A stretch of 64,000 nucleotides of DNA. Origin: Candidatus Coprovivens sp. (lineage in GTDB: Bacteria > Bacillota_I > Bacilli_A > RF39 > UBA660). The notes beneath the pieces are model-generated. The model saw only the letters and a program-made list of their open reading frames with translations. It was not told where the DNA came from and did not search any database. Where the stretch lies: assembly GCA_051892935.1 (NCBI GenBank), contig JBJFGS010000025.1, forward strand, positions 80,813 through 144,812. The letters run 5' to 3'. The first letter of the stretch is position 1. Each line of letters opens with the position of its first letter. The translations under genes and the position numbers were made by a program. This document shows positions 3,472-57,500 of this stretch, piece after piece.

Positions 3472-4322
3472 CTAATTAGAGGATTGTAACCTGTAATTCA
3501 CGGGAGACAGTCCTTTTAATTTTACTTTAATTCTATCGTAATTATAATAATAAATATAGTCATCAATCGCTTTTATCAAATCATCTAATGTTTTATAATT
3601 ATCCTCTTGGTCATAAAACATTTCTGTTTTAAGTATACCAAAGAAATTTTCCATCATTCCATTATCCATACTATTTCCTTTTCTAGACATACTTTGTTTT
3701 ATACCATTATTTTTTAATCTTTGCTGATAAGATTGATGTTGATATTGCCATCCTTGATCTGAATGAAATATTAATCCTTCTAAATTATTATTTTTATTAA
3801 ATGCTTTATTTAGCATATCATTAATTTGTTCTAAGTTTGGTGATTTAGAAGTATTATAAGAAATTACTTCGCCATTATATCCATCTAATATTGGTGATAA
3901 ATAACATTTTTCACCACGAAGATTAAATTCAGTAACATCTGTATACCATTTTTCATTTGGTTTGTCTGCATAAAAATTTCTATCGATTAAATTATCGGTA
4001 ATTTTACCTATAGTTCCTTTATATGATGAATATTTTCTTTTATTTCTTTTTAACGGTTTTAAACCTAATTTAACCATTATTCTATAGACTTTTTTATGGT
4101 TAACATTATAACCTTAATTTCTTAATTCTAATGTGATTCTACGATAACCATATCTTTCTTTATTATTAATAAATATTTCCTTTATTTTATCATTATTTCC
4201 TTATTTTTATCATCTTTATCTATTTTAGATAAAGTATAATAATATACTGATTTAGCTAAACCAGATATTTTCAGAAGAATCACTAATGGATATATTAGCC
4301 GAAGTTCACTTACAACATTTAC
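3472..4322 (-). pseudogene. IS3-family transposase OrfB (rve/DDE integrase core), inactivated
   Basis: The -1 frame entered from the A AAA AAG slippery site gives VNVVSELRLIYPLV...EIMIK. It then needs a +1 nt correction in an A-run (gataaaataaagg). It also contains an in-frame TAA (ELRN*GYNVNHKKV). The intact C-terminal part is the track ORF 3472-4077 (HSDQGWQY...SMSRKGNSMDNGMMENFFG). Confidence 0.7.
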
Positions 4323-4825
4323 TTTTTCTTCTGTTGTTGATTCTTCCTTGCTTGAACAACGGCTCTCAATTTTTTTGAGTATTCTAGCTCCGCTTTTAAA
4401 TATAAATTTTCTTCTTCCAATCTTTTTATTTTTTCTTTATCTGTTTCATTTTCTTTTTTCTTTGTTACTTTAGGCATAGTTGACCGTCCTCGCTTTCGTT
4501 CAACTATATTATAACCATTTTCTATATAATTTTTAATCCAATTTTGTAACATTCCATAACTTAGTAAACTCATATCCAAAGCAACAGACCATACGGCCTC
4601 ACCATTAATTAAAACTCTATCAATAGCTTCTTGTTTTTCGAATCTTGTATGATTTTTATTTTTACCAGCTCTTAAAATATCTATTCCGTGTTTATCAATT
4701 AGTGCAATTAGATAATTTATTAGACATTTTCTAACTTTATACTTATTTGATAAACTGCATATGGACATTCCATTCTTTTTATCATTATACAAATTTATTT
4801 TATCTTCATAAGTTAATTTTGACAT
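4319..4825 (-). CDS. IS3-family transposase OrfA (HTH plus leucine zipper)
   Basis: 168 aa, IS150 OrfA-like. Ends in ...ARKNQQQKKK* with the canonical A AAA AAG programmed -1 frameshift motif immediately before the stop. Confidence 0.75.
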   Translation of the reverse strand: MSKLTYEDKINLYNDKKNGMSICSLSNKYKVRKCLINYLIALIDKHGIDILRAGKNKNHTRFEKQEAIDRVLINGEAVWSVALDMSLLSYGMLQNWIKNYIENGYNIVERKRGRSTMPKVTKKKENETDKEKIKRLEEENLYLKAELEYSKKLRAVVQARKNQQQKKK

Positions 4826-4900
4826 ATAAAAACCTCGTTTCTATTTTGTCCAAGAAACGGGGTTCATATCAATACTCAAATCTACTTTTTTATTTAATAA

Positions 4901-5812
4901 TTAAACTTTTTCTACTAATTTAATAGATTTATCTACTAAGTAATTAATATTTTCATCTCTACATACTGTATCTTTTTTAGTATGAATTTTATCTATATAT
5001 TCAAAATGCTTTCCTCTAATTACTGAACAAACACCTACACCATTAGTAAAATTAGCTTGATCAGATGGATAAATAGCTCCTTTAGTAATCATATCAGTAA
5101 TAACATTATTATCACTAGTATAAACATCTTTTAACAAATCTACATTTTTAATAGCTTTTTTATTAAAAATAAACATAATTTTATCTCCATCAGAAACACA
5201 ATCAAAATTAATTAGTAGCTTTTCTTTCATAACATCCTTATGCTTAGAAGCAAAAGATGCAGAACCTATAAGTCCAGATTCTTCTAAATCAAACAAGATA
5301 AAAGCAACTTTATCTTTTAAATTATCAGGTATTTTATTAATCATTTCTAGAATAGTTAATACACCAGATGTGTTATCATTAACAGTAGATTTATTTGCTG
5401 GACCAAACATTATTAAACAAACAAATAATATTATAATAAAATCATATATAAGTTCTAATAATAACTCATTAATTGGAAACAAAAATGAAATTCCAATAGT
5501 AATAAAAGCAGAAACAAATACAATTAAGAATAATAATAAAATTTGATATAAAACATAAATAAAAATATTTGTAGGTGTAATAAAATTAGGAACAGGTAAT
5601 ACAGCACAAGTATCATAATGAGCCGTAAATAAAACCTTAGCTTTACTAACATCACCAATAACTATATTTCTACTACCAAAATATCCTTTTTCAATTGATA
5701 TGTCATATTTAGAATCTTTTAATTCCTCTTTAACATAACTAATAAACTCATTTTTTTGTTTTTTATTTTTTCTAACCATATACTTATTTAAAATAGTATC
5801 TTTATACTTCAT
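4901..5812 (-). CDS. M28-family metallopeptidase-like protein with an internal hydrophobic (transmembrane) insert
   Basis: HYDT, DNTSGV and DLEESGLIGS zinc-ligand motifs. Start moved to the ATG (MKYKDTIL) preceded by GGAGGAAG. The track start at 5917 is unsupported. Confidence 0.55.
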   Translation of the reverse strand: MKYKDTILNKYMVRKNKKQKNEFISYVKEELKDSKYDISIEKGYFGSRNIVIGDVSKAKVLFTAHYDTCAVLPVPNFITPTNIFIYVLYQILLLFLIVFVSAFITIGISFLFPINELLLELIYDFIIILFVCLIMFGPANKSTVNDNTSGVLTILEMINKIPDNLKDKVAFILFDLEESGLIGSASFASKHKDVMKEKLLINFDCVSDGDKIMFIFNKKAIKNVDLLKDVYTSDNNVITDMITKGAIYPSDQANFTNGVGVCSVIRGKHFEYIDKIHTKKDTVCRDENINYLVDKSIKLVEKV

Positions 5813-5847
5813 ATAAACTTCCTCCAAAAAAAGAGCAATCATTGCTC

Positions 5848-6018
5848 TTAATAATATATTAACATTCCAAAAATAGATATCAAAGAACCTAAAATCATAA
5901 CAAGAGCCATAATCCAACCAACAATTTTCATTACTAATTTTCTTTTTTGATTGGCAGTCATTTTTTTCTTTTTAGGTTTAATTTTTTCTTCGACTTCATC
6001 TTTAATTTTTTTTGCCAT
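5848..6018 (-). CDS. small membrane protein (56 aa), not in the ORF track
   Basis: MAKKIKDEVEEKIKPKKKKMTANQKRKLVMKIVGWIMALVMILGSLISIFGMLIYY. RBS AGAGGTGA 7 nt before the ATG. Hairpin AAGAGCAAT-c-ATTGCTCTT at the stop. Confidence 0.35.
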   Translation of the reverse strand: MAKKIKDEVEEKIKPKKKKMTANQKRKLVMKIVGWIMALVMILGSLISIFGMLIYY

Positions 6019-6102
6019 TTAAAATCACCTCTAACTATATAAACTAAATATAATTTATCATATTTTTCACCTTAAGTAAATAAATTTAATCAGGTGAAAA
6101 AT

Positions 6103-6669
6103 ATGATAAGAATAATATCGAAGTATAAAAATATCTATATATTTCTAATAACACTAGCTATAATCGGTGCAATAAGTGGTTATCTATATTATCAGATTCA
6201 ACCAACTAAAACTAAAGAAGAAATAAAAACAAACGTCAACATCAAAGAAAGCATAAATTCAAGAGTAAATAACTTATCTAAAAACTTAAAAAATAATATA
6301 AAAATATTCTTTTATTCACTATTAATAATACCTATAATAATAAATATCTTTAATATATTTTATAAGCCTTTCGAAATAGGTTTTATTTTTAATTTATTAT
6401 CAAAATATAATATTAAACTATCATTAATATATACAAACATATACTTAAATATTCCTTTTATAATAAGTATCATCCTAACTAGAATAAGTATAACTTTCAT
6501 ATATAATATAATAAAATACATTATAATAAGAGATAATAAATCAAAAGTATTAATAAAAAATACATTTAAAAAATACATTATAATAATAATTATTTCAATA
6601 CTATACGATATATTAATTATCATCACTAGTCCTTATATAAACAGATATTTAATGACATTTATTAAATAA
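6103..6669 (+). CDS. polytopic membrane protein, Ile/Leu/Asn-rich, function unknown
   Basis: 189 aa from an ATG with an AGGTGA RBS (the track starts at a GTG at 6094). Several predicted TM helices. Confidence 0.5.
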   Translation: MIRIISKYKNIYIFLITLAIIGAISGYLYYQIQPTKTKEEIKTNVNIKESINSRVNNLSKNLKNNIKIFFYSLLIIPIIINIFNIFYKPFEIGFIFNLLSKYNIKLSLIYTNIYLNIPFIISIILTRISITFIYNIIKYIIIRDNKSKVLIKNTFKKYIIIIIISILYDILIIITSPYINRYLMTFIK

Positions 6670-6700
6670 TAATGTTATAATTAATAATAGAGGTGATGAT

Positions 6701-8368
6701 ATGGAAGCACTAGCTATCAGCGCAGCAAATTTAAATACCATAGAAGAAAACTTAGGAGCAGTTGCCAAAGAATTATCTGGAGTCATAAATAATGTTTCAA
6801 CAGTAAATGATCAAGTAAATAAAGTAGAATCAAAAGTAGAAACACTTAATGACGAAGTAAAAAGCCTAGTTAAAGAAATAAGAGAAACTACTATAATAAC
6901 AAACGCTCGTCAATCTATTATGTATAACAACTCAGAAATAGAAAAAAAATATGGATACTACGATAAAGTAAGAAGAACAACTGAATCCCTATTAGATGCT
7001 ATTGAAAACTCATCAATAAGAAAAAATTCTCTTCAAGAACTAAATCAAGAAATTATTTTAAATAATCCAAATTACTGGTTATCTTCTGCTTTAGCTGCAT
7101 TATCATCATGGTTATTAAACGATCGTACAAATACCGAAAAAGAATTAAATAACGCATTAAAAAAAGATAATAAAAAAACAAGTCTTTTCTTCTGTTTGAT
7201 AAATTTAAAATTACAAAGAACTCAAACATCTTTAAATTGGTTAAATAAATATCTATCTCTTCAAAATCCAACTAAATTAGATAAAGATTTTATAACTATC
7301 CTTGATTTAATTGCAACAGGTACTTTTGGTGATGAAGCCAAAAATACAGTATTAAAAAAAATAAATTTCTGGTTTAATAGTCTTAACTCTGAAAAAGAAA
7401 TACAAAACGAACAAAAAAGCATATGGAGCAATTTTTTAAAAACAAAACAAGATACCGATATAAGAATGCCAAATTTAGAAAACTATTCCCCAGATGTATT
7501 CAAACTAAAAAACAACTTAGCAATAACATCAACTTATATAAATGTCCTTAATCATTTAGAAAACATTATAAAAAGCGACACATCAAATAAAGGAATAAAC
7601 GAAATAATAAATAATTTAATATACGAATACGAATCAAATGAACAAATATATCAAAAAGACAATTTAAAAAATAATCTTATTATAGAATGTAATGGTAATA
7701 GAGAAGAAGCCGAAAAACTATTTAAAAAACAAGAAAGTATTTATAACAATGAAACCAATCTTCTAACCCTTTTAAGCAACATTATAATATATAAAAATTC
7801 ATACAGTATTAGTAATGAAACACAAAAAATAGCTTTATCACTAATGAAAGAATACATCCAAAACGCTATTGAAGAAATGAATGAAGAAATAAGTAAAGAT
7901 AACATCAATATATCAATAGACAAATTTAAAACAACAACCAAAGATGGAAGTAATTTAAAAGAAGCAAAACAAGACTTAGAAGCTTATCTAAGTACGATAT
8001 TTAATGAAGAAGATAAAGATTTAATAATTACTCTTTTAATAATAAATATTCTAGGAATAATAGGAATATTCATAACTTTAAACAGCAAAATTCTTTGTAC
8101 ATTATTAATAATAATAATTCTATTAGGAAATTTCATTTTACTATTTAAATTAAATCAAAGAAATAGGCTAAGAACAAGAGAAAAAAATAAATTGAGAATC
8201 AATATAGGAAATATCCTTGAAAGAGTCTTAGCAGAAACAACAGATTACAACAACTTAATGTTAGAAGACAACGAACATTATATAGAATTAAAAACATATC
8301 TAAACAATCTAGAAGCTGAAAACTACACAAAAAGTAACGACGAAAGAAATATTAATATAGGAGAATAA
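6701..8368 (+). CDS. coiled-coil protein with a C-terminal double transmembrane anchor, function unknown
   Basis: 555 aa. RBS AGAGGTGA. N-terminal heptad-like region. Two hydrophobic helices near residues 440-490. Confidence 0.5.
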   Translation: MEALAISAANLNTIEENLGAVAKELSGVINNVSTVNDQVNKVESKVETLNDEVKSLVKEIRETTIITNARQSIMYNNSEIEKKYGYYDKVRRTTESLLDAIENSSIRKNSLQELNQEIILNNPNYWLSSALAALSSWLLNDRTNTEKELNNALKKDNKKTSLFFCLINLKLQRTQTSLNWLNKYLSLQNPTKLDKDFITILDLIATGTFGDEAKNTVLKKINFWFNSLNSEKEIQNEQKSIWSNFLKTKQDTDIRMPNLENYSPDVFKLKNNLAITSTYINVLNHLENIIKSDTSNKGINEIINNLIYEYESNEQIYQKDNLKNNLIIECNGNREEAEKLFKKQESIYNNETNLLTLLSNIIIYKNSYSISNETQKIALSLMKEYIQNAIEEMNEEISKDNINISIDKFKTTTKDGSNLKEAKQDLEAYLSTIFNEEDKDLIITLLIINILGIIGIFITLNSKILCTLLIIIILLGNFILLFKLNQRNRLRTREKNKLRINIGNILERVLAETTDYNNLMLEDNEHYIELKTYLNNLEAENYTKSNDERNINIGE

Positions 8369-8370
8369 CT

Positions 8371-8547
8371 ATGAACGAAGAACAATTTAAAAAACTAGAT
8401 ATAGGCAATGAAATAAAAATAAAACCAGCTATTATTAATCTTCCAGAAAAAAAAGATAAAGATAATAAAAATGATGAAAAAATAATAGTCGAACTTCCAA
8501 CATGGAACATAGAACCACCTATAGAAATAAAAAGAGGCGAACAATGA
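8371..8547 (+). CDS. small protein (58 aa), not in the ORF track
   Basis: MNEEQFKKLDIGNEIKIKPAIINLPEKK...IEIKRGEQ. RBS AGGAGAA. Its stop overlaps the next start (ATGA). Confidence 0.35.
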   Translation: MNEEQFKKLDIGNEIKIKPAIINLPEKKDKDNKNDEKIIVELPTWNIEPPIEIKRGEQ

Positions 8548-8978
8548 CATACGAAGAATGGTTAAATACAATTGAAGAATTAAAACACCCAAACCTAAGC
8601 ATAGATAATCTAAATAAAATAAAAAACACCTCCTTAAATGAAAATATTAATCCTTTATTAATTCCTAAAATAGAAAATTTAGTTAAAGAAAGATTAAACA
8701 ACAGCATAAATAAAATAATTTTAAATCTTAGTGAAATATTTAGCGATATAAACTACTTAGATCTAACACTACTAAATTTTAAAAAAGAAATAAACTATAT
8801 ATTAGAGATAATCTCTATAAAACAATTACCAGAAGAAAAACAAAAAGAATTAAAAGACATGATAAAAGCCGAAAGTAATAATGTAATAGAAATTCTAAAT
8901 AAAGAAGCACAAAAGCTTGATTACACAGGTTCCTTATCATCAATAATAAATAACTATAGAATAAAATGGAGTGAATAA
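8544..8978 (+). CDS. hypothetical protein
   Basis: 144 aa from the ATG that overlaps the upstream stop. The track start at 8502 lies inside the upstream small ORF. Confidence 0.45.
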   Translation: MTYEEWLNTIEELKHPNLSIDNLNKIKNTSLNENINPLLIPKIENLVKERLNNSINKIILNLSEIFSDINYLDLTLLNFKKEINYILEIISIKQLPEEKQKELKDMIKAESNNVIEILNKEAQKLDYTGSLSSIINNYRIKWSE

Positions 8979-8979
8979 A

Positions 8980-10476
8980 ATGAATTACAATGAAGCAAAA
9001 GAATACTTAAAAAGATATTTAAAAGCAAGAATACCAGTTATTATAATTAATACAGCAGAAAAAAATCGTTCATTAAGATTAATTAAAGAAATTGCCAATG
9101 AAGCAAATATGAATTTTAATTTATATCAAATGTCTCAAGGAATATCTGATTTAAAAACAAATACAATAAAAAGCGAAGATAAAACAATAATGAGTGCCAT
9201 TGATTACATTGTAAACGAAATAAGACACCAAGAAAATAGTAATTTTATCATAAGTGATATATCAGATATATACGAATCAACCACCATTTCAAGGTACCTT
9301 GTAGATGTAATAGAAAAAGCAGAAACCATGTCTGGAGTAATAGTTTTAGTTACAAACGAACCAATTTGGTCAAATATTCAAAGATTAGGAATAACAATCA
9401 AACTAAACTACCCTACAGAATCAGAATTAAAAGAAACAATAATGAACACTATTTCTCCTTATAAAAACCAAATTGAAATAGAATGGGATGAAATAGACTA
9501 TGTAAATGCTGCAACATATCTTCAAGGATTAAGTGAAATGGAAGTAAAAAATATTATCTCATCATTAATTGTAAAAGGTTCAATAAAAAAAGAAGATTTA
9601 AAAGAACTAAAATATGCAAAACAAACTTTATTTAATGAAATAGCAGGGTTAGAAGCTATTGAAGTAGATGATGACTTTCAAATAGCTGGACTAGATAATT
9701 TAAAAGAATGGTTATATGAAAAGAAAACTTTAATGGATCCAGCAAAAAAAGAAGAGCTATCAAAAAGAGGAATTGCTGCTCCTCGAGGAATTCTACTAAC
9801 TGGAGTACCAGGTTGCGGAAAAAGTCTTTGTTCAAAAGCAACAGCAAGTATCTTTAATATTCCCTTATATAGACTTGATTTAGCAACTGTTCAAGGTCAA
9901 TACGTTGGTCAATCAGAAAAACAACTCAAAGAAGCTCTAGATACAGCAGAATACGTTTCCCCTTGTGTTCTTTGGATTGATGAAATAGAAAAAGGATTAA
10001 ACGATTCAAATTCTAGTGTTACATCAAAAATGATTGGCCAATTCCTATTTTGGTTACAAGAATGTGAAAAGCCCGTATTCGTAATAGCATCAGCTAATAG
10101 CGTTGAATCACTACCACCAGAACTAATAAGAAAAGGACGTTTTGATGAAATATTCTTCGTTGATTTACCAAACGCATCCGAAAGAAAACAACTACTAAAA
10201 TTATATTCAAATAAATATTTAAAAGTAGAAATAAGTGAAGAACTAAAAAACAAACTAGTCTCAATAACCGAAGGATTCGCAAGCGCTGATATTGAGGCAA
10301 CAATTCGTAATATAGCATATAAATTAATTGCCAATAAAGATATCGAATTAACAGAAAGACTTATAATAGAAGAATTATCAAAAGTAGTATCACTATCCAA
10401 AACAAATCCAGAAAAAATAGAAAAAATACGAAAATGGGGACAAGAAAGAGCAACCAAAGCATCAAAAGATATATAG
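8980..10476 (+). CDS. classical-clade AAA ATPase with a roughly 250 aa N-terminal domain of unknown function (YjoB-like?)
   Basis: Walker A GVPGCGKS, Walker B VLWIDEIE, second region of homology with RKGRFDEIFFVDLP. ATG with a GGAGTGA RBS. Confidence 0.75.
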   Translation: MNYNEAKEYLKRYLKARIPVIIINTAEKNRSLRLIKEIANEANMNFNLYQMSQGISDLKTNTIKSEDKTIMSAIDYIVNEIRHQENSNFIISDISDIYESTTISRYLVDVIEKAETMSGVIVLVTNEPIWSNIQRLGITIKLNYPTESELKETIMNTISPYKNQIEIEWDEIDYVNAATYLQGLSEMEVKNIISSLIVKGSIKKEDLKELKYAKQTLFNEIAGLEAIEVDDDFQIAGLDNLKEWLYEKKTLMDPAKKEELSKRGIAAPRGILLTGVPGCGKSLCSKATASIFNIPLYRLDLATVQGQYVGQSEKQLKEALDTAEYVSPCVLWIDEIEKGLNDSNSSVTSKMIGQFLFWLQECEKPVFVIASANSVESLPPELIRKGRFDEIFFVDLPNASERKQLLKLYSNKYLKVEISEELKNKLVSITEGFASADIEATIRNIAYKLIANKDIELTERLIIEELSKVVSLSKTNPEKIEKIRKWGQERATKASKDI

Positions 10477-10484
10477 GTGATAAA

Positions 10485-11312
10485 ATGAAAGAAAAAAAAG
10501 ACATCAAATATCTTGTCAAAAGTAACAATTACATAGGACTATTATTCTTCGCGCTAGTACTAGCATCACTATTATATATATTAAAAAAAGAAGAAACAAC
10601 ATTTCAAAACATCGAACCAACTATGAATGAAATAACAAACTTACAAGAACAACCTAAAGAAATAACAGAGCCAACAAAAGAAATATCAGATCTCCAAAAC
10701 TATCTAAATACCGGAGATCCAAACACATTTAATATATATCAATCACATTATATATTAAATGAAAAAATAACAAAAGATAACCTTAATAACGAAACTCTTC
10801 TATATATGGCATATAAATATATAGAAAAAACAACCGACTTCACAAACTATATAAACTACCTGGGTTGTGATGAAGCTCAAATCATAGGACTAGATAATCA
10901 AATAACACAATGTGGTGGAACCAAAATAAATGCTACTACTTATACGATGAACAGATATATTACAAAAGAATTATTAAATAAAACAATCAAAAAAATATTT
11001 AACATAAATCTAACTCAATATACAAACTTTTATACAAGTGAAGATAATCTATGTTACTATTTAAAAGACGAATTTTTATGTGTTTCCCATCAAACAAATA
11101 AAATAACAAATTATGGCGAAAAAGAATTTCAAAAAGCATACAAATATAATAATAAAATAGAAATTATAGAAAAATATCATTTCATAAATAATGGAATATA
11201 TTACAAAGGTTTTAATAGCCAAGAAATAGGTGAAGGATATTATAAAAGTACCTTCAATAAAATAAATGGTTCATATTACTGGGAAAGCACAGAGTATTAC
11301 GAAATAAACTAG
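10485..11312 (+). CDS. membrane-anchored extracytoplasmic protein, function unknown
   Basis: N-terminal signal-anchor (LLFFALVLASLLYIL) from an ATG with a TAGGTGA RBS. The track start at 10434 overlaps the AAA gene. Confidence 0.5.
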   Translation: MKEKKDIKYLVKSNNYIGLLFFALVLASLLYILKKEETTFQNIEPTMNEITNLQEQPKEITEPTKEISDLQNYLNTGDPNTFNIYQSHYILNEKITKDNLNNETLLYMAYKYIEKTTDFTNYINYLGCDEAQIIGLDNQITQCGGTKINATTYTMNRYITKELLNKTIKKIFNINLTQYTNFYTSEDNLCYYLKDEFLCVSHQTNKITNYGEKEFQKAYKYNNKIEIIEKYHFINNGIYYKGFNSQEIGEGYYKSTFNKINGSYYWESTEYYEIN

Positions 11313-11372: not shown

Positions 11373-11408
11373 TAAGATGTAAAATATAAAAGAAAGGAAT
11401 TGGTAAAA

Positions 11409-12176
11409 ATGCGTAAATTAAATGAATTATTTCAAGAATTAGGAATATCTAAAGTAAGATTAGCAAAATATTTAGGAGTTTCAAGACAAATGGTCTATAA
11501 CTATCTAGAACTAAATGATATAAATAAATGGCCAAAAGAAAAAAAATTATTACTATTTAAATTATTAGATATAAATGATAGTAACGCAATAGAAGATATT
11601 CAAGTAACAACAGACTACTTAATGAATGTTGAAAGTAGATTAAATCAAGGAGTAAAAAGTACGGCTGAAATGGATAATGGTTTAAACTTCAAAGGTTTAA
11701 ATAAAGAATCACAAGTACTCCTAAGCGATATAACTTATCTTCTAAAAGAAAAATTAAGTGATGAGACAAAAGAAGAAAACTACTATGCTATTTTATATCT
11801 ATATCATCTACTACAATCTTTAGATAATGTTCCAGAAATTAAATATATATTTGGTTATATGAGTAAAACAACAGGATTTACCAATCCAGAAGAATATAAA
11901 TTTCAAGAAGATAAACAATTTATTTTTGAAGGTATCCTATACTCAGCTTTAACATTATACAACAACGGAGGAGCATCTCGTTCTAAGTTAGCCGAATCAC
12001 ATAAACGTTTTGTACAAGAAATAGAACAAAAAAATGAAGAAAAACTTTCTCGTACACAACAACTAAATACAATAAAAATTCAAGCACTTAAAGAACTAGG
12101 ATTCACAGAAATAAACGAAAGCAATGCTGCCGAAGTATTTGAAAAAATAGCAGAAATTCAATCAAGAAAGGTTTAG
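11409..12176 (+). CDS. XRE-like helix-turn-helix transcriptional regulator with a C-terminal domain of unknown function
   Basis: N-terminal LGISKVRLAKYLGVSRQMVYNY HTH. ATG at 11409 (the track starts at a TTG at 11400). Confidence 0.55.
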   Translation: MRKLNELFQELGISKVRLAKYLGVSRQMVYNYLELNDINKWPKEKKLLLFKLLDINDSNAIEDIQVTTDYLMNVESRLNQGVKSTAEMDNGLNFKGLNKESQVLLSDITYLLKEKLSDETKEENYYAILYLYHLLQSLDNVPEIKYIFGYMSKTTGFTNPEEYKFQEDKQFIFEGILYSALTLYNNGGASRSKLAESHKRFVQEIEQKNEEKLSRTQQLNTIKIQALKELGFTEINESNAAEVFEKIAEIQSRKV

Positions 12177-12209: not shown

Positions 12210-12791
12210 ATGAAAAAGAAAATAATAATATTATCTAGCTTACTATTATTAATTAGTGGATGTAAAGAAAAAGAAATAGAATGTGAAGAGCAAAAAGAAG
12301 AAACACTAATAAAATATAATAATACAAAAATAACCGAAAAAGATGCTCTAGAAGAAACAAAAGAATATATCTTTCCAGTTATATTTGAAAAAGTAATAGG
12401 AGATATTTTAACAGAAGAAATGAAGGATAAACTCGAAGATGGAAATAACTACGCAGAAGAAACAATAGAAGAACTAAAAACTTACTATGAAGATGAACTT
12501 GAAAAAGCAATAATATCCTATACATCATATAAAACAATAGAAGAATATAAAAGATCAATTTTAATAAGTTATTTACAAGAAGAATATTTTAAAGAATATA
12601 TTAGCAATAAAGAAAAAATAGATTACAACGAAATTACCGATGATAATTTAACTAATTATTATAAAAAATATTATGTTGAGAGTATAAACGACTTATTAAA
12701 AAAATATAATGTAACATTCGAAAATAAAGATTATAAAAAGATGTATGAAAAATATATAGAAGAAAAAGAAACTTACTATAATAATAACTAA
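12210..12791 (+). CDS. lipoprotein, Glu/Lys/Tyr-rich
   Basis: Signal peptide with a lipobox LLLISGC. RBS AAAGGAG. Confidence 0.6.
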   Translation: MKKKIIILSSLLLLISGCKEKEIECEEQKEETLIKYNNTKITEKDALEETKEYIFPVIFEKVIGDILTEEMKDKLEDGNNYAEETIEELKTYYEDELEKAIISYTSYKTIEEYKRSILISYLQEEYFKEYISNKEKIDYNEITDDNLTNYYKKYYVESINDLLKKYNVTFENKDYKKMYEKYIEEKETYYNNN

Positions 12792-12813
12792 AGCACATTT
12801 TGTGCTTTTTTAA
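12791..12813 (+). terminator. rho-independent terminator
   Basis: AAGCAC-atttt-GTGCTT followed by TTTTTT. Confidence 0.6.
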
Positions 12814-13005
12814 TAATTTAAAGTGTCCTATTAGCATAATAAGAATAGAGAAGGGGAAGATAAAGAAATTAAAGAAAACATTCTTAAAAATAGCTAAAAA
12901 CGCCCAAAAATATATAACATAAATAAAATTAATAAGTATGAAAAAATAATAATTAAAAAATAAAAAGATCAAACTCATAAACATAACATTTGTTCGCTAG
13001 CAAAA

Positions 13006-13050
13006 ATTAAAAAACTCCCCCTATTCAAAAATGCAAAAATTAATAGGGGA
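13006..13050 (-). terminator. rho-independent terminator read on the minus strand
   Basis: Stem CCCCTATT / AATAGGGG (13017-13025 / 13042-13049) with a U-run on the minus strand (plus-strand A-run 13006-13014). It lies about 660 nt downstream of the zupT stop. Confidence 0.5.
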
Positions 13051-13099
13051 CTCGAATTAAAAAAATACAAATAAAACATTCAAAAAAAAGATACAATTA

Positions 13100-13415
13100 T
13101 TCAATGAGATAATGAAACTAATCATATAATTAAATCTCGAATCCTAATTTGAAATAACCACAGTCCATAGATTGATAATTTATCAATTATTTAAATGTCG
13201 ATTCCAATTTCATAATACAGATTACGAAATATTAATTCCACGAGATGATAAATTGTTCATCTTTTAAAATCTCGATGCCGATTTAAAACAATAAATAAGA
13301 AACGAGACGATGAAGTATTCATCAAAAGAAATCTCGATTCCTAATTTAAAAGTTTAAATAGAAATCAAGCTAAAGAACTAATAAGCTAACAGAAATTCGT
13401 TTCCAATAAATGCCA
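13100..13415. repeat. four tandem degenerate ~70 bp units, each carrying nested palindromes (CGAGAT...ATCTCG and an inner GATGAA...TTCATC-type hairpin)
   Basis: Units begin near 13106, 13164, 13233 and 13301. The conserved core is AAATCTCGATTCC-AATTT. The inner hairpin arms co-vary between units (ATGA/TCAT, TGATAA/TTATCA, GATGA/TCATC, GATGAA/TTCATC). Confidence 0.6.
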
Positions 13416-13718
13416 AACCAAAAACGAACAAATGTATAACATATAAGAAAATAATAATTTTAAATTTTTTCTTAAATTAAAGATTAATTAAATAATAATT
13501 ATATAATATATATTAATAAAATAAAACTAAAGAAAAATAACATAATAAAGAAATAAATTAACAAAATAATTTTCTATATATAAATGAATTTTTAAATTAA
13601 ATATTTAACTTCGTATAATATATATTATGTTAACCAATTAAATATTTTATAAAAAATAAATACTATTATTCATAATAATTATATTTATAAAGTTTAAAAA
13701 AGCTCATATTAAAAACTT

Positions 13719-14447
13719 CTATAAAGATATGATAATTATTATAATTCCAAATATAATCCCCATAATAAGCCATTTATAACATTTATAAGAGATTCCTTCT
13801 TTTAAAATTTTTAAAACACTAAGACTAATCATAATACCACCAGTAATTATTAGAATAATACTCATAATAAAATCATTAATAAAATTATTTAAAAAAATAA
13901 TACTAAATAAAGCACCAAAAACTTCCCCCATAGAACTAATAATAGTCATAAAAAAAGCTTTCCCCCTACTTCCAGTACTATAATAAATAGGTAAACTAAT
14001 ACATATTCCTTCCGGAATATTATGAATCATAATAATAAAACTCATCTTCAAACCTAAAGAAAGATTATTACTACTAGTTAAAGCACAAATAACTCCTTCA
14101 GGAACATTATGAACAAATAAACTAAGCATACTAAGAATACCTATCTTATATAAGCTACTCTCCCCTACAATATTTCTATCAATAACAAAAACAATTATAT
14201 AACCAATCAATAATAAAATTAAACCATACACAAAAATACCAAATATACTAAAATCATTATTAACCAATAATAAACCATCAGGAATTAATTCTATAATAGA
14301 GATTAAAAACATAACTATAAAAGATAACCCCATTGAAAAAGAGATTAACTTATTTTTATATTTTACATCAATAAATAATAGTATATTTCCTAATATAGTA
14401 GCAAATCCAGCTATAAAAGTTATAATTAAAGGATAAATATTTTTCAT
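13719..14447 (-). CDS. zupT: ZIP-family zinc transporter ZupT
   Basis: Two HN(V/I)PEG motifs (FVHNVPEGV, MIHNIPEGI). 242 aa polytopic membrane protein. Confidence 0.85.
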   Translation of the reverse strand: MKNIYPLIITFIAGFATILGNILLFIDVKYKNKLISFSMGLSFIVMFLISIIELIPDGLLLVNNDFSIFGIFVYGLILLLIGYIIVFVIDRNIVGESSLYKIGILSMLSLFVHNVPEGVICALTSSNNLSLGLKMSFIIMIHNIPEGICISLPIYYSTGSRGKAFFMTIISSMGEVFGALFSIIFLNNFINDFIMSIILIITGGIMISLSVLKILKEGISYKCYKWLIMGIIFGIIIIIISL

Positions 14448-14696: not shown

Positions 14697-15311
14697 TACC
14701 AAACAAGTAACTGCTTCTCTATCTTTTGTCTCACTATTAACATAATAGCAAGTACATAAATTTTCCCTGCAGCTACCACAATCAACAGCAGTAGCACATT
14801 TCGTTAATCTAATTTTCTCGCTATTTTGAGGGCTAACTGAACCAGGGTTATTAACAACTTTTTCTAAACCTGCAACTTTAGTTGCTCCTTGCTTATTTAA
14901 ATTAGTATATGAACTAGGAATAATTATAGTAAAGCCATCATCGCACTTAGTTTCATACAAATTAGTAAGTTTTTCGTTAAGTACTTTAAATTCAGCCAAT
15001 TGAGCGATACATGAATTTAAATTTATATTATCACAATAATATTTATTATCTAAGTAAGTAAACCAACTACCAACTATATCCAAACTATAATTCTGTATTT
15101 CTTTTCTTTTAGCATCTTCTTTTTTATATTCCTCAAGTAATTCTATTACAGGTTCTAGTTCACTTACACTTCCACTAACATAATACTTAGTCAAACTATT
15201 CGTAACAATCTCCGTATAATCTGAAGTTTTAAAATCAATAATTTTTTTACCTCCAAAAATAATTCCTACAATCAATAATATTATTAGTATAATAGGTAAA
15301 GCCTTTTTCAT
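14688..15311 (-). CDS. secreted or membrane-anchored cysteine-rich protein (10 Cys in the C-terminal half)
   Basis: Signal-anchor (ALPIILIILLIVGIIFGG). Its start overlaps the recombinase stop (ATGA). Confidence 0.5.
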   Translation of the reverse strand: MKKALPIILIILLIVGIIFGGKKIIDFKTSDYTEIVTNSLTKYYVSGSVSELEPVIELLEEYKKEDAKRKEIQNYSLDIVGSWFTYLDNKYYCDNINLNSCIAQLAEFKVLNEKLTNLYETKCDDGFTIIIPSSYTNLNKQGATKVAGLEKVVNNPGSVSPQNSEKIRLTKCATAVDCGSCRENLCTCYYVNSETKDREAVTCLVKK

Positions 15312-16210
15312 AAATCCTCCTTATAAATTTTATTTCTTGGATGACATTGATAATCACTCTTTATTTTCTCATTTACTAAATGAGCATATATTTGTGTAGT
15401 AGATATATCTTCGTGTCCAAGTAATTCTTGTATAATTCTCAAATCTGCCCCATTTTTTAATAAATGAGTAGCAAAAGAATGTCTAAGTACATGAGGAGAT
15501 ACATTTTTCTCTATTCCAGCTCTTTTACATTCTTTCTTTAATATTTTAAAAAATCCTTGCCTACTTATATTAGTCAAACTATTAGAAATAAACAAATAAT
15601 CGGATACTTTATCTTTTAAAATAATATTTCTATATTCCGTAACATAAATAGTCAAATATTTTAAAGCTAAATCAGTAACAGGAACTATTCTTTCCTTTTT
15701 GCCTTTCCCCATAACTCTTATAAAACAATTTTGAACATCAACATCAATTAATTTTAAATTACACAATTCAGTTATTCTAAGCCCTGTTGCATAAAGTAAT
15801 TCTAACATTGCTTTATTTCGATAGTCATAAGGGGTTAATAAGTTTATATTAAGTAACTTATTTACTTCATCTTCAGTTAAATAAGTTGGTAATTTCCTAG
15901 CATTCTTAGGACTAGAAATATTACTACAAGGATTTTCCTTTATAATATTATCATTAACTAAAAAAGTATAAAAAGAATTAATAACTGTTGTATAATGAGA
16001 AATAGTTCTAGAATTCTTATCTTGTATTGTAGCAATATATTTTTTTAAATCATCATAAGTATTATTAACGACATTTCCTTTAAAGAAAATATCAAAGTCT
16101 TTAAGATCATTTAAATAACTCTTTAAAGTATTATTAGATAACTTTCTTTCGAATTCTAAATACTTTAAATACTTATTAATATATTCACTAGGAACATATT
16201 CATCTTTCAT
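15308..16210 (-). CDS. tyrosine recombinase, XerC/XerD family
   Basis: 300 aa. R...K...HxxRHxxAT...GHxx...Y catalytic residues (ATGLRITE, HVLRHSFATHLL, LLGHEDISTTQIYAH). Confidence 0.85.
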   Translation of the reverse strand: MKDEYVPSEYINKYLKYLEFERKLSNNTLKSYLNDLKDFDIFFKGNVVNNTYDDLKKYIATIQDKNSRTISHYTTVINSFYTFLVNDNIIKENPCSNISSPKNARKLPTYLTEDEVNKLLNINLLTPYDYRNKAMLELLYATGLRITELCNLKLIDVDVQNCFIRVMGKGKKERIVPVTDLALKYLTIYVTEYRNIILKDKVSDYLFISNSLTNISRQGFFKILKKECKRAGIEKNVSPHVLRHSFATHLLKNGADLRIIQELLGHEDISTTQIYAHLVNEKIKSDYQCHPRNKIYKEDL

Positions 16211-20806: not shown

Positions 20807-22813
20807 TTACCCAACAGGTGGAATAAAATTAGGTTTAATTGTTCCATTATTACTAACTTGACCATTTGAAGAAACATTCGGCATCATCATATCTGGTTTA
20901 GAATTATCATAAAAATTAGTAATAACTTGAGATTGAACTTCGTTAGTAGGCTGAGAAACAACATTACCTGTATCATTAGCAGATTTTGCATTTACCTGAG
21001 AAACAGCTACACCTCCACCACTCTGTTGATTACCAGAATTATTAGAATTAGCAGCCGTTCCATGAACTTTCCAACAATTATTAACATCACATGAATTAGA
21101 ATTAGGTGCAGGGTTAGGCATTTCCATTTTTATAACCATTGGTAGCTTAAATGCTCCACCAAATCCAACACAATTACCTGGCTGTAAAATTTTCTGCTTT
21201 TCAATAACATCAGCAGAAATATTAGGTAACATCGTTCTAATATATTCAATATCCTTAGGATGTGTCATTTTAAATATTAAGAAATTACTACATTGAGCAA
21301 TAACTGTTTCTGATATTTCTACAGGTCTTTGCGAAATTATATTAAGTAAAACTCCATACTTACGACCTTCTTTAGCAATTCTATCAAATATATTATATCC
21401 AATTAAGAAAACATCTGCATCCTTTTGAACATATCTATGAGCTTCTTCCAAAAACAAATGAAACGGAATTTGTGCTCTTTGTTTTCTAGTCTTACAAAAA
21501 TCAAAGAATATTCTAGCAATAATTTTAACAATAATCTTCGCTTGAGTATCATCAATATCTTCCAAATTAATATTAATAACTTGTGCTTTCTTATTACCAA
21601 CAGCAACTAACGAAGCAATATATGTTTCATAAGAAATATAAGTATCACATTTATATATATTAGCAATTTTACTATTTATCAAAGAATTTAATCTAACTTT
21701 TAATAACATAGAATCATCATATAATTGTTCATTACTTTGGAAACCTTCACTTATTAAAGTAAACTCTAAAGCCGCAGCAAAATCTCTCATTGAATAAAAA
21801 GCATTAACTGGTTCTTCAGTCATTTCCAAATCTTCATCAATATGTTTTAAAATATAATCAGTAATTAAAACAGATTCTCCAAAATTACCATTACTATCTA
21901 TTTCAAAACACTCAGATAACGTTCTAGTATAACCCAATCCTTGAATAACACTATCAAAATTAAAATCGTTAGTATGGCATACTTCTAATACCTTAAATAT
22001 TTCATTTTTCTTATTAGCAGTAATTTGATTACTATATAAAATAGCAATTAATGCTTTCGCTATTAAATGATCTTTATATCTATTAGCTACTTCATCATCT
22101 TTACTAAATATTCTAGTTAACTTTAAAGACCTTTCTATGATAGGAATTTGACTATGTTTATCTGCTTGTAACATAATAGTTAAATCATCCATGTTTAATA
22201 AATGAAAAGGAATCTTTAATTCGTAATCAGATTCTTCTTGAATATTAGTTGTAATAAATTTATAACTATAATTAGGATTAATCTTACCTAAATCTCTAAA
22301 AGCAGTCTTATATTCACCATAAGCATCAAAAATGAAAATATTAGCATTATAAGAAACTAAATTAGGATTAGAAAAGATATTTTGAACTAATCTTGCAACC
22401 CCACATGACTTACCTGAACCAGTATTTCCAAATACTGCCATATGATTAGCAAATAGATTATTAATATCAGCAAAAACATCATAATCAGTATAAATAGAGC
22501 TTCTTCCTAATTTAAATGTTGTCTCATCATAAACCCCAACAATAGCACTAAGTTCTTGATCATTAATAGTTCTTATTTTACTAGATAAAACAGGCTTTCT
22601 AATAACACCTGATACATATCTCCCATTCATAAATTCCCCAAGAAATCTTATTTTAATTATTTCATCAGTAACTTCTTCTACTTCACCCAAAATAGCTTGA
22701 TTTGGAGCTTCAAAAACTACATGGACATTCATTAAATCTCCCATTTCTTCAGCTTTAGCTATAGTAGTAACGTGAGCTACGTTTCCAGAAATAAATTTAA
22801 TATTACCAAACAT
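20807..22813 (-). CDS. HerA-like (DUF87) FtsK/HerA-superfamily ATPase with an Asn/Ser/Gln-rich low-complexity C-terminal tail
   Basis: Walker A GNTGSGKS, the FDAYGEY motif, Walker B LFLEEAHRY, C-terminal ISQRP box, N-terminal HAS-barrel-like region. ATG with an AAAGAGGTG RBS (the track starts at a TTG at 22840). Own TATAAT promoter. Confidence 0.8.
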   Translation of the reverse strand: MFGNIKFISGNVAHVTTIAKAEEMGDLMNVHVVFEAPNQAILGEVEEVTDEIIKIRFLGEFMNGRYVSGVIRKPVLSSKIRTINDQELSAIVGVYDETTFKLGRSSIYTDYDVFADINNLFANHMAVFGNTGSGKSCGVARLVQNIFSNPNLVSYNANIFIFDAYGEYKTAFRDLGKINPNYSYKFITTNIQEESDYELKIPFHLLNMDDLTIMLQADKHSQIPIIERSLKLTRIFSKDDEVANRYKDHLIAKALIAILYSNQITANKKNEIFKVLEVCHTNDFNFDSVIQGLGYTRTLSECFEIDSNGNFGESVLITDYILKHIDEDLEMTEEPVNAFYSMRDFAAALEFTLISEGFQSNEQLYDDSMLLKVRLNSLINSKIANIYKCDTYISYETYIASLVAVGNKKAQVININLEDIDDTQAKIIVKIIARIFFDFCKTRKQRAQIPFHLFLEEAHRYVQKDADVFLIGYNIFDRIAKEGRKYGVLLNIISQRPVEISETVIAQCSNFLIFKMTHPKDIEYIRTMLPNISADVIEKQKILQPGNCVGFGGAFKLPMVIKMEMPNPAPNSNSCDVNNCWKVHGTAANSNNSGNQQSGGGVAVSQVNAKSANDTGNVVSQPTNEVQSQVITNFYDNSKPDMMMPNVSSNGQVSNNGTIKPNFIPPVG

Positions 22814-22870
22814 AACCAACACCTCTTTTATTATATACAACTATATCTTAACACAAAACAAAAATAAATT

Positions 22871-54361: not shown

Positions 54362-54577
54362 CTATCTTTTTTTGGCTTTTTTCTTTTCATCAGAAGTGGT
54401 ATAAGAAGTTACGTTACTATGAACCATTTCTGCAAAAAGAGAGTTTGATATTACTTCATTCATATCTTCACCATCCAAAAGCGAATCAACAAATTGTAAT
54501 TCATCATTTTCATCATACCTTTTAACAATTTTCAATCCTTCTTTTAAAGAAATCAACTTTTCTTTTTCATTACTCAT
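54362..54577 (-). CDS. small acidic protein (71 aa), translationally coupled to the giant ORF
   Basis: Its start overlaps the stop of the 2331 aa gene (ATGA). Acidic core with a Lys-rich tail. Confidence 0.4.
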   Translation of the reverse strand: MSNEKEKLISLKEGLKIVKRYDENDELQFVDSLLDGEDMNEVISNSLFAEMVHSNVTSYTTSDEKKKAKKR

Positions 54578-57500
54578 AATGTAACTCCTCCACTCTTTTT
54601 AAGATTCTCTAATTCTAAAACATACTCTTCCATCTTAATAATAGCATCATTTCTTCTTTTCAAAATCAACTCTAATACTTGATCAGCTTTATCTTTACCT
54701 AAAGAAACGGCATATTTTCTAAATAAATCCTTATAATCATCATCACTTAAAAGTTTAACTTTATTTATTGTATCAGTAATAACAGATAAATCAAGATCTA
54801 TTTCTCCGTTCCTATACCTAGTAAATAATATTTGATAAATAGGAATACGATGATTACCATTAGGAGTAAAAGAATAATCTGCATTCAATGTTCTATCATC
54901 ACTTATAAACCTAAACGATTGTTCTTTGTCAATTCCTCTCAAATTATTTGAACTATCTATAATAAAATTTCCAACATAACAATCAAAATTACATAGTAAA
55001 AAGTCAATAACATATTCTCTTAGCAAAGCAGAAGAATAACAATAATCTAACTCTCCACCTTTATTAACCCAATCCTTAAGTACATCAGAATTATCCTCAC
55101 TTATCTCCACTAATTCTTGTTTAGAAAATCTCAATTTACCCCCAATACTCTCAACTCTTACTGAAGTACCAGGAGATAAAAATTCTTGTAATTTAGAAGC
55201 CGCTTCTTGAATATCAGCTCTAAAAGGTTGTAAAGCATAGTTATTTTTATCTACTGCTGGTTTTAGTAAGAAACTATCATCATCAATATCATATCTATAC
55301 ATAATTCCAGACTCTCCCAAATTAGCAGTTTCAAGAGCTACAATTTCTTCTTTAGACATTCCTCTTAAAACAGTTAAAGTTTTTCTAAAAAGACCAATAC
55401 GAGTCAATTCTTTTTTACAGTCAGGTAAATCAACTATTATTTGACAAACAATGCTTTCCATCTCGTATAAAGATTTACACAAATAATCAAAAGATATTTC
55501 ACTATTACGATACTTATCATTCAAAATAGTTAAACAATAATCTACTTTTTCTTTTATACTAACATTTGGATTATTCTCTTGTATCCCATCAAAGAATATA
55601 GAATACATCAACGAATAATTAGGACTAATTTTAAAATCAGCTTTAGCTTTCTTTAAATCTTCCACTTTCTTAGTATCATAAGCATAAACATCAAATTTAA
55701 TAATTGGAACATCAACTCCAAGAAAATCACTAAAATACTTAGCAGCCCTAATTGTAGCCTCATTTGGTACATCACCAACACAAGCCAAAGCACAAGGAAG
55801 CATACCTTCTCTAAAACCAGCTACTTCATTATAAGAACAATGCTTATAACAACTACACTGATTAAGAGCATTCAAATTTGTAAAAGCATTAATATTAGCA
55901 GTTGGTTCAATCTTATAACCACCATGCTCAACAAATAAATCTCTACCATTCATAAAAAGCATAAAACTCTTAGGTAAACTATTAAACAAATAAACAACAC
56001 CATTATTATCTCTATTATTTATAAACCAAAATCCTTTATCGGAAATACTAGATGTAGATAATGTCGAAGCTCCTTCTAACTTAGTCCATAAAGAAGGATC
56101 ATTAATTAACATCTCCTTAAAACCAGACATATTAGTATCATAAGAATAAATCCTATGGACTAAAAAATTAAACTTTTCAGAATTCATTTCAATAATAGTA
56201 ACACCATAAGGATTATTAGGATCACCCTTATCAATACGTTTACTTTTCAAATCCTCAATATTAGTAAGTCTTCCATTAAATTGATAATTATGTAACAATC
56301 TAATCTTAGCAATAATATTTCTCACTTCATCACAATAATCTAAAACTCCTGCATTGTCATTTATAAGTTTAGTCATTAAATCTTTTAATTCATTGATATT
56401 TTGAGATTCTATAATTCTACTCATTAATGTAATAATAGCTACATCTTTCTTATTGTAAAAACATTCTTTAAATATTTGATTAGCTCTTTCCAAACCATAA
56501 CATTCTATAATATCTTCTCGTAAAGTTTTTAGATTTAAATAATTATTTAATTGGAAATTATTAAAATCTTTTGCTAAAGAAGCGATATCAGCATATCCAA
56601 ATAAAGTAGCTAAAACATTCTTAATTTCAGCAATATTATTCGAATTTAATTTAATCATCCAAAAATCTTGTGTTTTCTTTTCATATTGTTTAAGTTCATC
56701 ATATGTTTTAATATCATACAAATTATTGCCTATAATAACTTTTCTAAGATTAGAAATATCAATTTCACTTAATTCATAATTTGAATTACAAATATCAATT
56801 ATTAACTCTTTATACTTATCAAAATTCCTAAAAGCATAATGAACTCTTTTATCATCATTATCAAACAAATTATAACGACAAACAATATCATAATAACTAC
56901 TAAGTAAATTAGCATTATTAGCTTTTATTTCTTTAGATATCACTGAAACAGCAGGTGTATTATATTTAATAACATCAAGTACAAATTCAAGACCAAATAA
57001 CGGATAAATATATTTAACAACATCATAATTAAAAACAGGATTCTTTTCTAAAGTATTTAATTTACCATTAGATTTTAAAATAAATAAAGCATTCTTAAAA
57101 ACAATTTGTAAATCACTATCAAATATTTCAAGATCAATAAATGGTAAAACTGTTACAATCTTTCTGAAAGTAAAACCATTTTCATTAGTCAAATCACTAT
57201 CGTAAGAATTAATAGCATTTGCAAAAACACTTCTAATAACATTATCATTTTTATCTATTAATCTAAAATCCTTCAAATTACTAAGTAAAAAATCAGCAAC
57301 GAAAAAACAATTATTCTTATTATTAATATCAAAATTTGAAAAATGAATAATCTTCAAAACTTTAGAAACCGATAATAAATGTCTATCAATAGTCGAAAAA
57401 TCATCTATATAAGCAAAAGTACGTTCATTCAAAAATTCCAGAGGAAGTTGAAATAAAATTGAAGGAGCAGTTTTTAAAGCAGCCACAACCATTTCCTCAT

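Follow-up and report, generated by a model that had tools for sequence, protein, structure and literature searches.

A tandem array of degenerate repeat units lies beside the chromosomal dif site in a 64,000-nucleotide stretch of DNA from Candidatus Coprovivens sp. (contig JBJFGS010000025.1, positions 80,813 to 144,812 of the forward strand; hereafter the window), and it is a real, conserved array at a single locus. Four units plus a marginal fifth, each of ~62 bp and all in the same orientation, stand ~170 bp from dif. The weight of the finding comes from this linkage and not from hairpin covariation, for which the array had first been singled out: the initial annotation of the window read compensatory changes in the inner stems of the units and overlooked the context that defines the array, a dif site at 13608-13635 that serves as an integration hot spot for filamentous prophages. 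We tentatively favor a reading, somewhat short of even likelihood in our judgment, in which the array consists of dif-linked modules bound by a sequence-specific protein on double-stranded DNA.

Results

Anatomy of the array

The window has a GC content of ~25%, and the array occupies a 927-bp gap between convergent open reading frames (ORFs) at 12210-12791 (+ strand) and 13719-14447 (− strand). The ORF on the left flank, ending at 12791, encodes a 193-aa lipoprotein-like product, and the gene on the right flank, on the − strand and ending at 13719, encodes a ZIP-family zinc transporter (zupT). The initial annotation had placed tandem degenerate units in a gene-free region of about 900 bp here, and both core and profile searches bear this out.

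The units were scored with two nhmmer profiles, one built from all species and one, free of the window, built only from the units of other genomes. Unit 1 (13101-13151, + strand; core TCGAATCC at 13137-13144) was recovered by the core search and by both profiles (E = 6.7e-7 with all species, 2.9e-7 window-free). Unit 2 (13170-13212, + strand; core TCGATTCC at 13198-13205) scored 6.5e-6 and 4.2e-6, respectively, and carries a 7-bp palindrome, TTGATAA/TTATCAA. The strongest matches were to unit 3 (13236-13286, + strand; core TCGATGCC at 13272-13279; E = 1.8e-12 and 1.8e-13), the unit type best kept between species, whose orthologous columns are 625-680 of alignment A1, and to unit 4 (13298-13348, + strand; core TCGATTCC at 13334-13341; E = 5.9e-11 and 1e-11; A1 columns 690-745). 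The degenerate unit 5 (13364-13407, + strand; core TCGTTTCC at 13397-13404) is marginal, with E = 5e-4 for the all-species profile and 0.2 for the window-free profile, and it aligns in A1 with the last unit of relatives as its orthologue. The matches of the window-free profile lay at 13100-13151, 13176-13212, 13236-13286, and 13298-13348, and the unit profile found nothing beyond the array in the 64-kb window.

Searches with the cores gave the same picture. The 19-nt core AAATCTCGATTCCTAATTT had two matches at up to 3 mismatches where 0.07 were expected, a count reached in 0 of 100 shuffles, and the 10-nt core TCTCGATTCC at up to 1 mismatch had five window matches against 1.37 expected, four of them within the 207 bp of 13135-13341. 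Tandem Repeats Finder did not report the array. Identity among the window units is 45-68% over 53 aligned columns, lower than the ~70% first estimated, and the core-to-core spacings are 61, 74, 62, and 63 bp, where the initial annotation gave 58-72 bp. The conserved unit sequence reads ..CGAGnTGATnAAnTnATCA..AAATCTCGATKCCnAwTT, and each unit has two conserved blocks, TGATnAAnTnATCA and the near-invariant AAATCTCGATKCCnAwTT. The palindromes listed in the initial annotation are present: GAGAT at 13106-13110 with ATCTC at 13134-13138, TTGATAA at 13172-13178 with TTATCAA at 13180-13186, AGATGA at 13243-13248 with TCATCT at 13257-13262, and GATGAA at 13309-13314 with TTCATC at 13318-13323.

Several identities for the units were considered and rejected. 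The core TCGATTCC resembles a tRNA T-arm, but it has no complementary T-stem and there is no ARAGORN call. Short frames starting with ATG occur in units 3 and 4, units 1 and 2 have in-frame stops, and there is no conserved ORF that would encode a small peptide. Sites for Fur/Zur/PerR (7-1-7), FNR/CRP, cre, DnaA, and IHF misfit in spacing or key bases, as judged by eye against their consensus sequences.

Linkage to dif

The dif site, ACTTCGTATAATATATATTATGTTAACC (13608-13635, + strand), is a perfect 28-bp sequence of the Firmicute type, made up of the XerC arm ACTTCGTATAA, the center TATATA, and the XerD arm TTATGTTAACC. Of its 28 positions, 24 match the B. subtilis dif ACTTCCTAGAATATATATTATGTAAACT, whose sequence appears in PMC3025954, and the site is unique in the window, with 0 copies expected by chance. 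It lies between convergent genes, 1.7 kb from a gene for an XerD-type tyrosine recombinase (15308-16210, − strand) that scores 327.8 bits against TIGR02225 XerD (cutoff 329.6) and 314.9 bits against PRK00283 (cutoff 279). Orthologous loci were fetched through XerD and the adjacent helix-turn-helix (HTH) protein, and the XerD of these relatives, whose contigs we denote L007 and so forth, is 77-92% identical to that of the window; six public contigs that are 99.9-100% identical to the window gave no comparative information. The dif site is identical at 28/28 positions in L007, L009-L012, L142, and L147 and has 1-3 differences in the remaining relatives (mean pairwise identity, 0.96). In all 10 array-bearing species in which both array and dif were found, the array stands on the XerC-arm side.

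The elements between the left flank and dif also keep their order. From left to right, they are a G-rich box TAGAGAAGGGGA, the 11-bp sequence ACATTTGTTCG, a GC-rich hairpin CTCCCCCTAT...ATAGGGGA, 2-8 co-oriented units, an inverted copy CGAACAAATGT, a spacer of 4-12% GC, and then dif, XerC arm first. The two 11-bp sequences form a perfect inverted repeat that bounds the hairpin-plus-array block, with the left arm ACATTTGTTCG at 12986-12996 and the right arm CGAACAAATGT at 13425-13435 (both given on the + strand); they are the only two copies in the window. The right arm, with a mean pairwise identity of 0.88, is the most conserved element of the region after dif. The repeat is perfect in the window, L007, L011, L012, and L140, and its left arm has 2-3 mismatches in L010, L015, and L014, uncompensated in the right arm. 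As a minor lead, each arm contains one good half-site of a LexA (Cheo) box (CGAAC/GTTCG), the other half being poor. The AT-rich spacer (13436-13607) has 6-7% GC in the window and is poorly conserved in sequence; between the right repeat arm and dif it measures 164-179 bp in eight species, and one lineage has a shorter version of 140-141 bp.

Several relatives carry small prophages, equipped with Zot and rolling-circle Rep genes, whose integration point is exactly dif, with junctions at 6313 in L008, at 8576 in L016-L018, and at ~6490-6520 in L143/L145, and at least four phage types use the site. The array-side junction of the lysogens is a complete dif and the prophage lies on the XerD/zupT side; at the zupT-side junction, the XerD arm is joined to phage DNA beside a degenerate XerC-like arm. 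Such junctions are the signature of Xer-exploiting mobile elements (IMEX), for which PMC4246890 gives background. Because the prophage junctions lie exactly there, dif is used by XerCD.

The octamer GAGAAGGG at 12848-12855 (+ strand) is identical to the B. subtilis SpoIIIE recognition motif (SRS/KOPS class; PMC3384302), is the sole copy in 64 kb, and is directed at dif. Across the window and nine related loci, 12 of 12 occurrences of G(A/G)GAAGGG, which amount to about three independent sites, point to dif (8 from the left and 4 from the right). Inverted GAGAAGGG copies lie 208-271 bp to the right of dif in L010, L011, and L012, and the GGGAAGGG form is found in L010 and L014. This arrangement suggests a converging FtsK/SpoIIIE guide motif; alternatively, the box may be part of a hairpin at the 3' end of the HTH gene.

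On the + strand, GC skew at third codon positions (GC3 skew) is below zero in each of the 46 large ORFs, left and right of dif alike, with no sign change over 13.6 kb leftward or 50 kb rightward. Because the sign is the same on both sides, the skew switch is at least 13.6 kb from dif, and a dif position at or near the switch was not found in the window. Published distances from dif to the skew switch range up to ~1.4% of genome length (PMC3025954). Unlike the skew, gene orientation flips at ~13 kb, so that replication meets the genes clustered at 6.1-12.8 kb head-on.

These data bear on whether the units could be a clustered regularly interspaced short palindromic repeat (CRISPR) array or the iterons of an origin of replication. 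A period of 58-74 bp does resemble repeat plus spacer, and direct repeats beside a very AT-rich stretch resemble an iteron origin. However, the units are 45-68% identical rather than near-identical, the would-be spacer parts are homologous between units and orthologous between species, no Cas family was found in a scan of the large ORFs that reached from 6 kb upstream of the array to about 14 kb downstream of it, and the neighboring genes include no Rep family. In addition, the GC3 skew keeps the same sign throughout, so no origin fires at this locus. We regard either identity as hardly credible; the initial annotation had already set CRISPR aside, and an iteron-type replication origin is contradicted as well.

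Constraint on sequence rather than on pairing

The proposed covariation was examined in alignment A2, which comprises 53 units cut from 9 genomes and aligned gap-free over 53 nt. Under the nested-hairpin model, 63.7% of cells pair. Shuffling the letters of the 3' arm leaves 63.2 ± 0.8% paired, with 149 of 500 shuffles at or above the value observed, and the covariation score of 0.108 compares with 0.102 after shuffling. Controls with slid partners pair at 29-42%, and an extended outer stem performs no better than the nested hairpin. Chimeric units, in which the 5' half of one unit is joined to the 3' half of another, fold like native units (-1.85 vs -1.86 kcal/mol, p = 0.44) in a design that allows for shifting stem registers. 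The column pairs with the highest mutual information are neighbors that mark unit subtypes, not stem partners. Compared with dinucleotide shuffles, single window units have z-scores from +1.1 to -1.6 on either strand, and only units 1 and 4 take the nested hairpin as their fold of minimum energy. The compensatory change thus fails the shuffle, extended-stem, chimera, mutual-information, and folding tests. The palindromy is a property of the shared consensus (CGAG..CTCG, TGAT..ATCA), and departures from it are uncompensated.

What is conserved is the sequence itself. Across the 53 paralogous and orthologous units, 12 columns are at least 90% conserved while neighboring columns are close to random. 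C39 is invariant; C24, C44, and C45 are also among the columns at 90% or more, and G40 is at ~90%. The 3' arm is near-invariant whatever its partner, and the partner of C39 is G in only 34 of 53 units. Such asymmetric, position-specific conservation of G/C in an A+T-biased genome speaks for selection on sequence-specific recognition and against neutral decay. The constraint is on the unit sequence and not on pairing.

Recognition of that sequence could nonetheless take place in RNA. The block would then be transcribed, most plausibly on the − strand, from the right repeat arm or by read-through from zupT, across the array to the GC-rich hairpin and its U tract, and the modules would act as a decoy with multiple sites for an RNA-binding protein or as a small RNA derived from a 3' untranslated region. 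The hairpin, CTCCCCCTATT-(16 nt)-AATAGGGGA at 13015-13050, was read from the sequence and its arms are invariant in A1; on the − strand, TTTTTTAATTTTT follows it directly, giving it a terminator-like look downstream of the array. In most relatives, the + strand of the hairpin also carries GGGGACTTCCCCTTTT, and a simple terminator scan with a loop limit of 8 nt does not call it. Also in line with an RNA are the common orientation of all units, GGA-containing motifs (TTGGAATCGAG) on the − strand of every unit, AT-rich -10-like hexamers just upstream of ACATTTGTTCG on the − strand in several species, and the folding of block 12980-13440, which is better than that of its shuffles (z = -4.9 on the + strand and -3.6 on the − strand). 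However, the block z-scores are low on both strands and probably reflect DNA-level inverted repeats, namely the GC hairpin and the 11-bp repeat. Taken singly, the units show no folding advantage over shuffles, no stem tested covaries, and the left-arm changes in L010, L014, and L015 go uncompensated in the right arm. There is no conserved -35/-10 pair, and promoter-like sites are fewer than in shuffles, none of them driving the array, although the scan is uninformative in DNA this rich in A+T. Rfam gave no match at the gathering score in the 64 kb and only chance-level ones (E 1.9-3.5) in 12700-13800, so that no family emerges even at E up to 10; tRNA and tmRNA scans likewise found nothing. 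We consider action in RNA unlikely.

Conservation and distribution

The array is present in every close relative examined, with 2-8 units by species, some of them visibly decayed. The array has a mean pairwise identity of 0.59, and units 3-4 reach 0.70, compared with 0.39-0.52 for flanking non-coding stretches of lower complexity. Between species whose XerD is 81-92% identical, units can be aligned one by one as orthologues, and orthologous units are more alike than paralogous ones, which marks the array as old and retained. On these grounds, the array is under purifying selection.

A strict unit pattern of 23 positions (about 41-44 bits), which recovers one unit or more from every one of the seven genomes tested, was used for wide searches; it replaced a looser three-core pattern that proved non-specific, with more than 120 chance matches in viral contigs. 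Among 185,579 species genomes, one per species, the strict pattern matched in three places. Only one is true, the same locus in relative L140, and the remaining two are chance matches inside genes of unrelated organisms. The JGI metagenomes yielded a single contig, again the same locus beside a perfect dif, and the viral contigs of IMG/VR yielded no match. With the unit profile, no second locus emerged from the 64 kb, nor from the related loci, which total about 200 kb, and BLAST searches of phage and plasmid records found no similarity to the array. The dispersal that would have marked the unit as a generic scattered element is not seen in these searches, and the idea of a lineage-specific intergenic repeat family stands. 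In distant lineages, whose HTH protein is 64% and 56% identical, dif stands beside the HTH gene with no array and no 11-nt repeat. Across the lineages compared, the array is a single-locus, lineage-specific addition to an older HTH gene-dif arrangement.

The use of dif by phages raises the question of whether the array was left by, or serves, the filamentous prophages that integrate there, as an origin, a packaging signal, or an attachment remnant. Zot/Rep prophages do sit exactly at dif in several relatives, and rolling-circle replicons have origins built from a hairpin and direct repeats close to it. However, the prophage occupies the XerD/zupT side, so its remnants should gather opposite the array, and neither unit nor core was found in about 25 kb of sampled prophage DNA, in IMG/VR, or in GenBank phages. 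The sole contig labeled viral with weak unit matches, the 6-kb L155 (IMGVR_UViG_3300012082_000046), is a prophage with host flank: positions 4779-6004 hold dif, the HTH gene of the host, the GC hairpin, and two unit-like copies that are inverted and lack the core. We consider a phage origin or use of the array very unlikely.

A different kind of mobile DNA deserves more weight. The array may be the relic of one ancient modular insertion beside dif, non-autonomous and similar to a BOX element or a miniature inverted-repeat transposable element (MITE), that is decaying without present function. A block of 450-550 bp lies between perfect 11-bp terminal inverted repeats, species differ in how many internal units it holds (2 to 8, with decayed ones visible), the block is missing in distant lineages that keep the HTH gene-dif arrangement, and the locus is a hot spot for mobile DNA. 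Against a relic, the element is single-copy, with none elsewhere in the window, the related loci, the 185,579 species genomes, or the phage and plasmid collections, and it has no recognizable target-site duplication. Neutral decay would also not be expected to produce position-specific conservation that is strongest at G/C in an A+T-biased genome, and the greater likeness of orthologous than paralogous units points to an old, retained array. Overall, we judge a functionless relic somewhat unlikely.

Neighboring genes

The gene of the HTH protein (11400-12176, + strand; 255-258 aa, with the HTH at its N-terminus) flanks the dif region in all relatives. Database searches gave only faint HTH matches in Pfam, including one to ParB-HTH (E 0.005), and no Pfam, NCBIfam, or PDB relative. 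The family is narrow, with 318 clusters at 50% identity, and the protein is 89-100% identical between species whose XerD is 72-92% identical. By this comparison, it is unusually constrained.

The lipoprotein-like gene at 12210-12791 is intact in the window lineage and apparently cut by an early stop in L007 (intergenic 38-150); in other relatives, no gene is called at this position. Upstream of the HTH gene, a cluster at 6094-11312 encodes a 555-aa coiled-coil protein, a 158-aa ORF that is called as two small products (58 + 144 aa) in related contigs, a 501-aa AAA+ ATPase that is CDC48/FtsH-like with weak similarity to anti-phage IteA, and a 292-aa membrane protein. The cluster stands before the HTH gene in all array-bearing species and is missing in the array-less L150.

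About 7 kb from dif, a conserved gene (20807-22840) encodes a HerA/DUF87 ATPase of 677 aa that matches the FtsK/SpoIIIE P-loop weakly and lacks an FtsK gamma domain; no bona fide FtsK was found among the window ORFs scanned. Farther away, a 201-aa ORF at 3472-4077 resembles the C-terminal half of IS3-family transposases (E 2e-70) and is probably a fragment of an insertion sequence, and a 2331-aa ORF occupies 54574-61569 on the − strand.

Discussion

Our results support a model in which the units belong to the dif locus of the host in Candidatus Coprovivens and its close relatives. The model rests on the fixed side and distance of the array relative to dif, an adjacency that is kept in lysogens, a constraint on sequence only, and clustered spacings. 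Core spacings fall at 61-64 bp in 28 of 46 cases and at 73-74 bp in 6 of 46, which approximates 6 and 7 turns of the helix; the closeness to whole turns favors binding to DNA but is suggestive only, since the spacings share descent. An operator- or iteron-like array of protein-binding sites, one of the roles initially put forward, remains the best class. In the mechanism that we propose, a DNA-binding protein would occupy the modules and form a nucleoprotein platform beside dif. Such a platform might act in the manner of plasmid Xer accessory sequences, or as a terminus-organizing or fork-pausing array, and it could thereby influence XerCD recombination, prophage integration at dif, or the handling of the terminus region. 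A more specific version, in which a host-encoded accessory platform sets the geometry or efficiency of XerCD at dif through a lineage-specific protein and so affects dimer resolution or the integration and excision of filamentous prophages, strikes us as a long shot.

The HTH protein encoded at 11400-12176 is a candidate binding partner, and only a candidate. Zur, which had also been suggested, is an unlikely partner because the array lies at the 3' end of zupT and not at its promoter.

A number of observations weigh against protein binding at a dif-linked platform. The AlphaFold model of the HTH protein is too poor for a fold search and thus unusable (predicted local distance difference test score, pLDDT, 55), and the HTH gene adjoins dif also in lineages without the array. 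One lineage has two units only, and more distant relatives have none; with few or no units in some lineages, any function would be dispensable or lineage-specific. No 10.5-bp periodicity is evident when conservation is followed along the unit (p about 0.7; absent at 10-11.5 bp), only a marginal 5-nt periodicity (global permutation p about 0.05; columns 10-64 of a 66-column frame), in which every fifth unit column is poorly conserved. The GC3 skew does not change sign here, which lends no support to the array being the main replication fork trap. Finally, the units may be recognized as RNA instead.

This dif is also proven to receive filamentous prophages in a gut lineage that is common yet uncultured. 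Should a protein bind the array, the array would offer a new handle on terminus organization, or on the policing of Xer-exploiting elements, in Bacilli with reduced genomes. If it does not, it is a documented lineage-specific non-coding repeat whose apparent compensatory hairpins came from a consensus, a caution for scans based on sequence only.

Chromosomal dif is not known to require more than XerC, XerD, and FtsK directed by polar motifs, and we know of accessory DNA only for plasmid Xer sites. On a chromosome, an oriented, conserved array whose distance from the XerC arm of dif is fixed is unusual because such accessory DNA is known only on plasmids; to our knowledge, no bacterial chromosome has a control layer like that of plasmid cer. 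Plasmid accessory DNA lies on the XerC-arm side, and the array resembles ColE1 cer and pSC101 psi in being a few hundred base pairs of non-coding DNA beside the XerC arm of an Xer site. In those plasmid systems, such DNA is bound by architectural proteins and governs how Xer recombination turns out. The cer site pairs a 30-bp core with accessory DNA of about 180 bp, to which PepA and ArgR bind (PMC5357621). Unlike the array, cer and psi are carried on plasmids, their accessory sequences abut the core directly and are not tandem repeats, and they work without FtsK. The array starts 140-179 bp from a chromosomal dif, and the SRS/KOPS-like motif near it suggests ordinary FtsK-type control. The likeness of TGATnAAnTnATCA to an ARG box (ArgR/AhrC) was rejected as chance level, with 216 matches genome-wide against 316 expected at up to 3 mismatches and the units matching only at 3; for PepA sites, there is no usable consensus.

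Other systems share one or another feature with the array. If protein-bound, it would be comparable to B. subtilis Ter/RTP and E. coli Ter/Tus as a set of oriented units near dif; however, Ter sites are dispersed, form no 62-bp tandem units, and have no sequence resemblance to the array, and the skew does not switch at the array locus. The sponge RNAs of the CsrB/RsmZ type likewise carry short repeated motifs in or between weak hairpins and conserve sequence without strong covariation, but our scans found neither a promoter nor an Rfam match for the array, and we know of no such RNAs in Bacillota. Pneumococcal BOX elements and MITEs have tens to hundreds of copies per genome. The array has, as they do, terminal inverted repeats around variable internal sub-units in AT-rich, non-coding, hairpin-capable DNA; it differs in being single-copy and positionally conserved.

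The remaining comparison is with sopC and iteron arrays. The sopC site of the F plasmid has 12 units of 43 bp, each with a short inverted repeat, and the array shares with this class co-oriented tandem units, imperfect internal palindromes, conservation of sequence, a single locus, and a variable copy number. It differs in that no ParA/ParB-type or Rep partner was found and in that its units are longer and far more degenerate (45-68% identical). We know of no array of this type beside dif. The Coprovivens array would extend the class of tandem recognition-site arrays to an unusual location.

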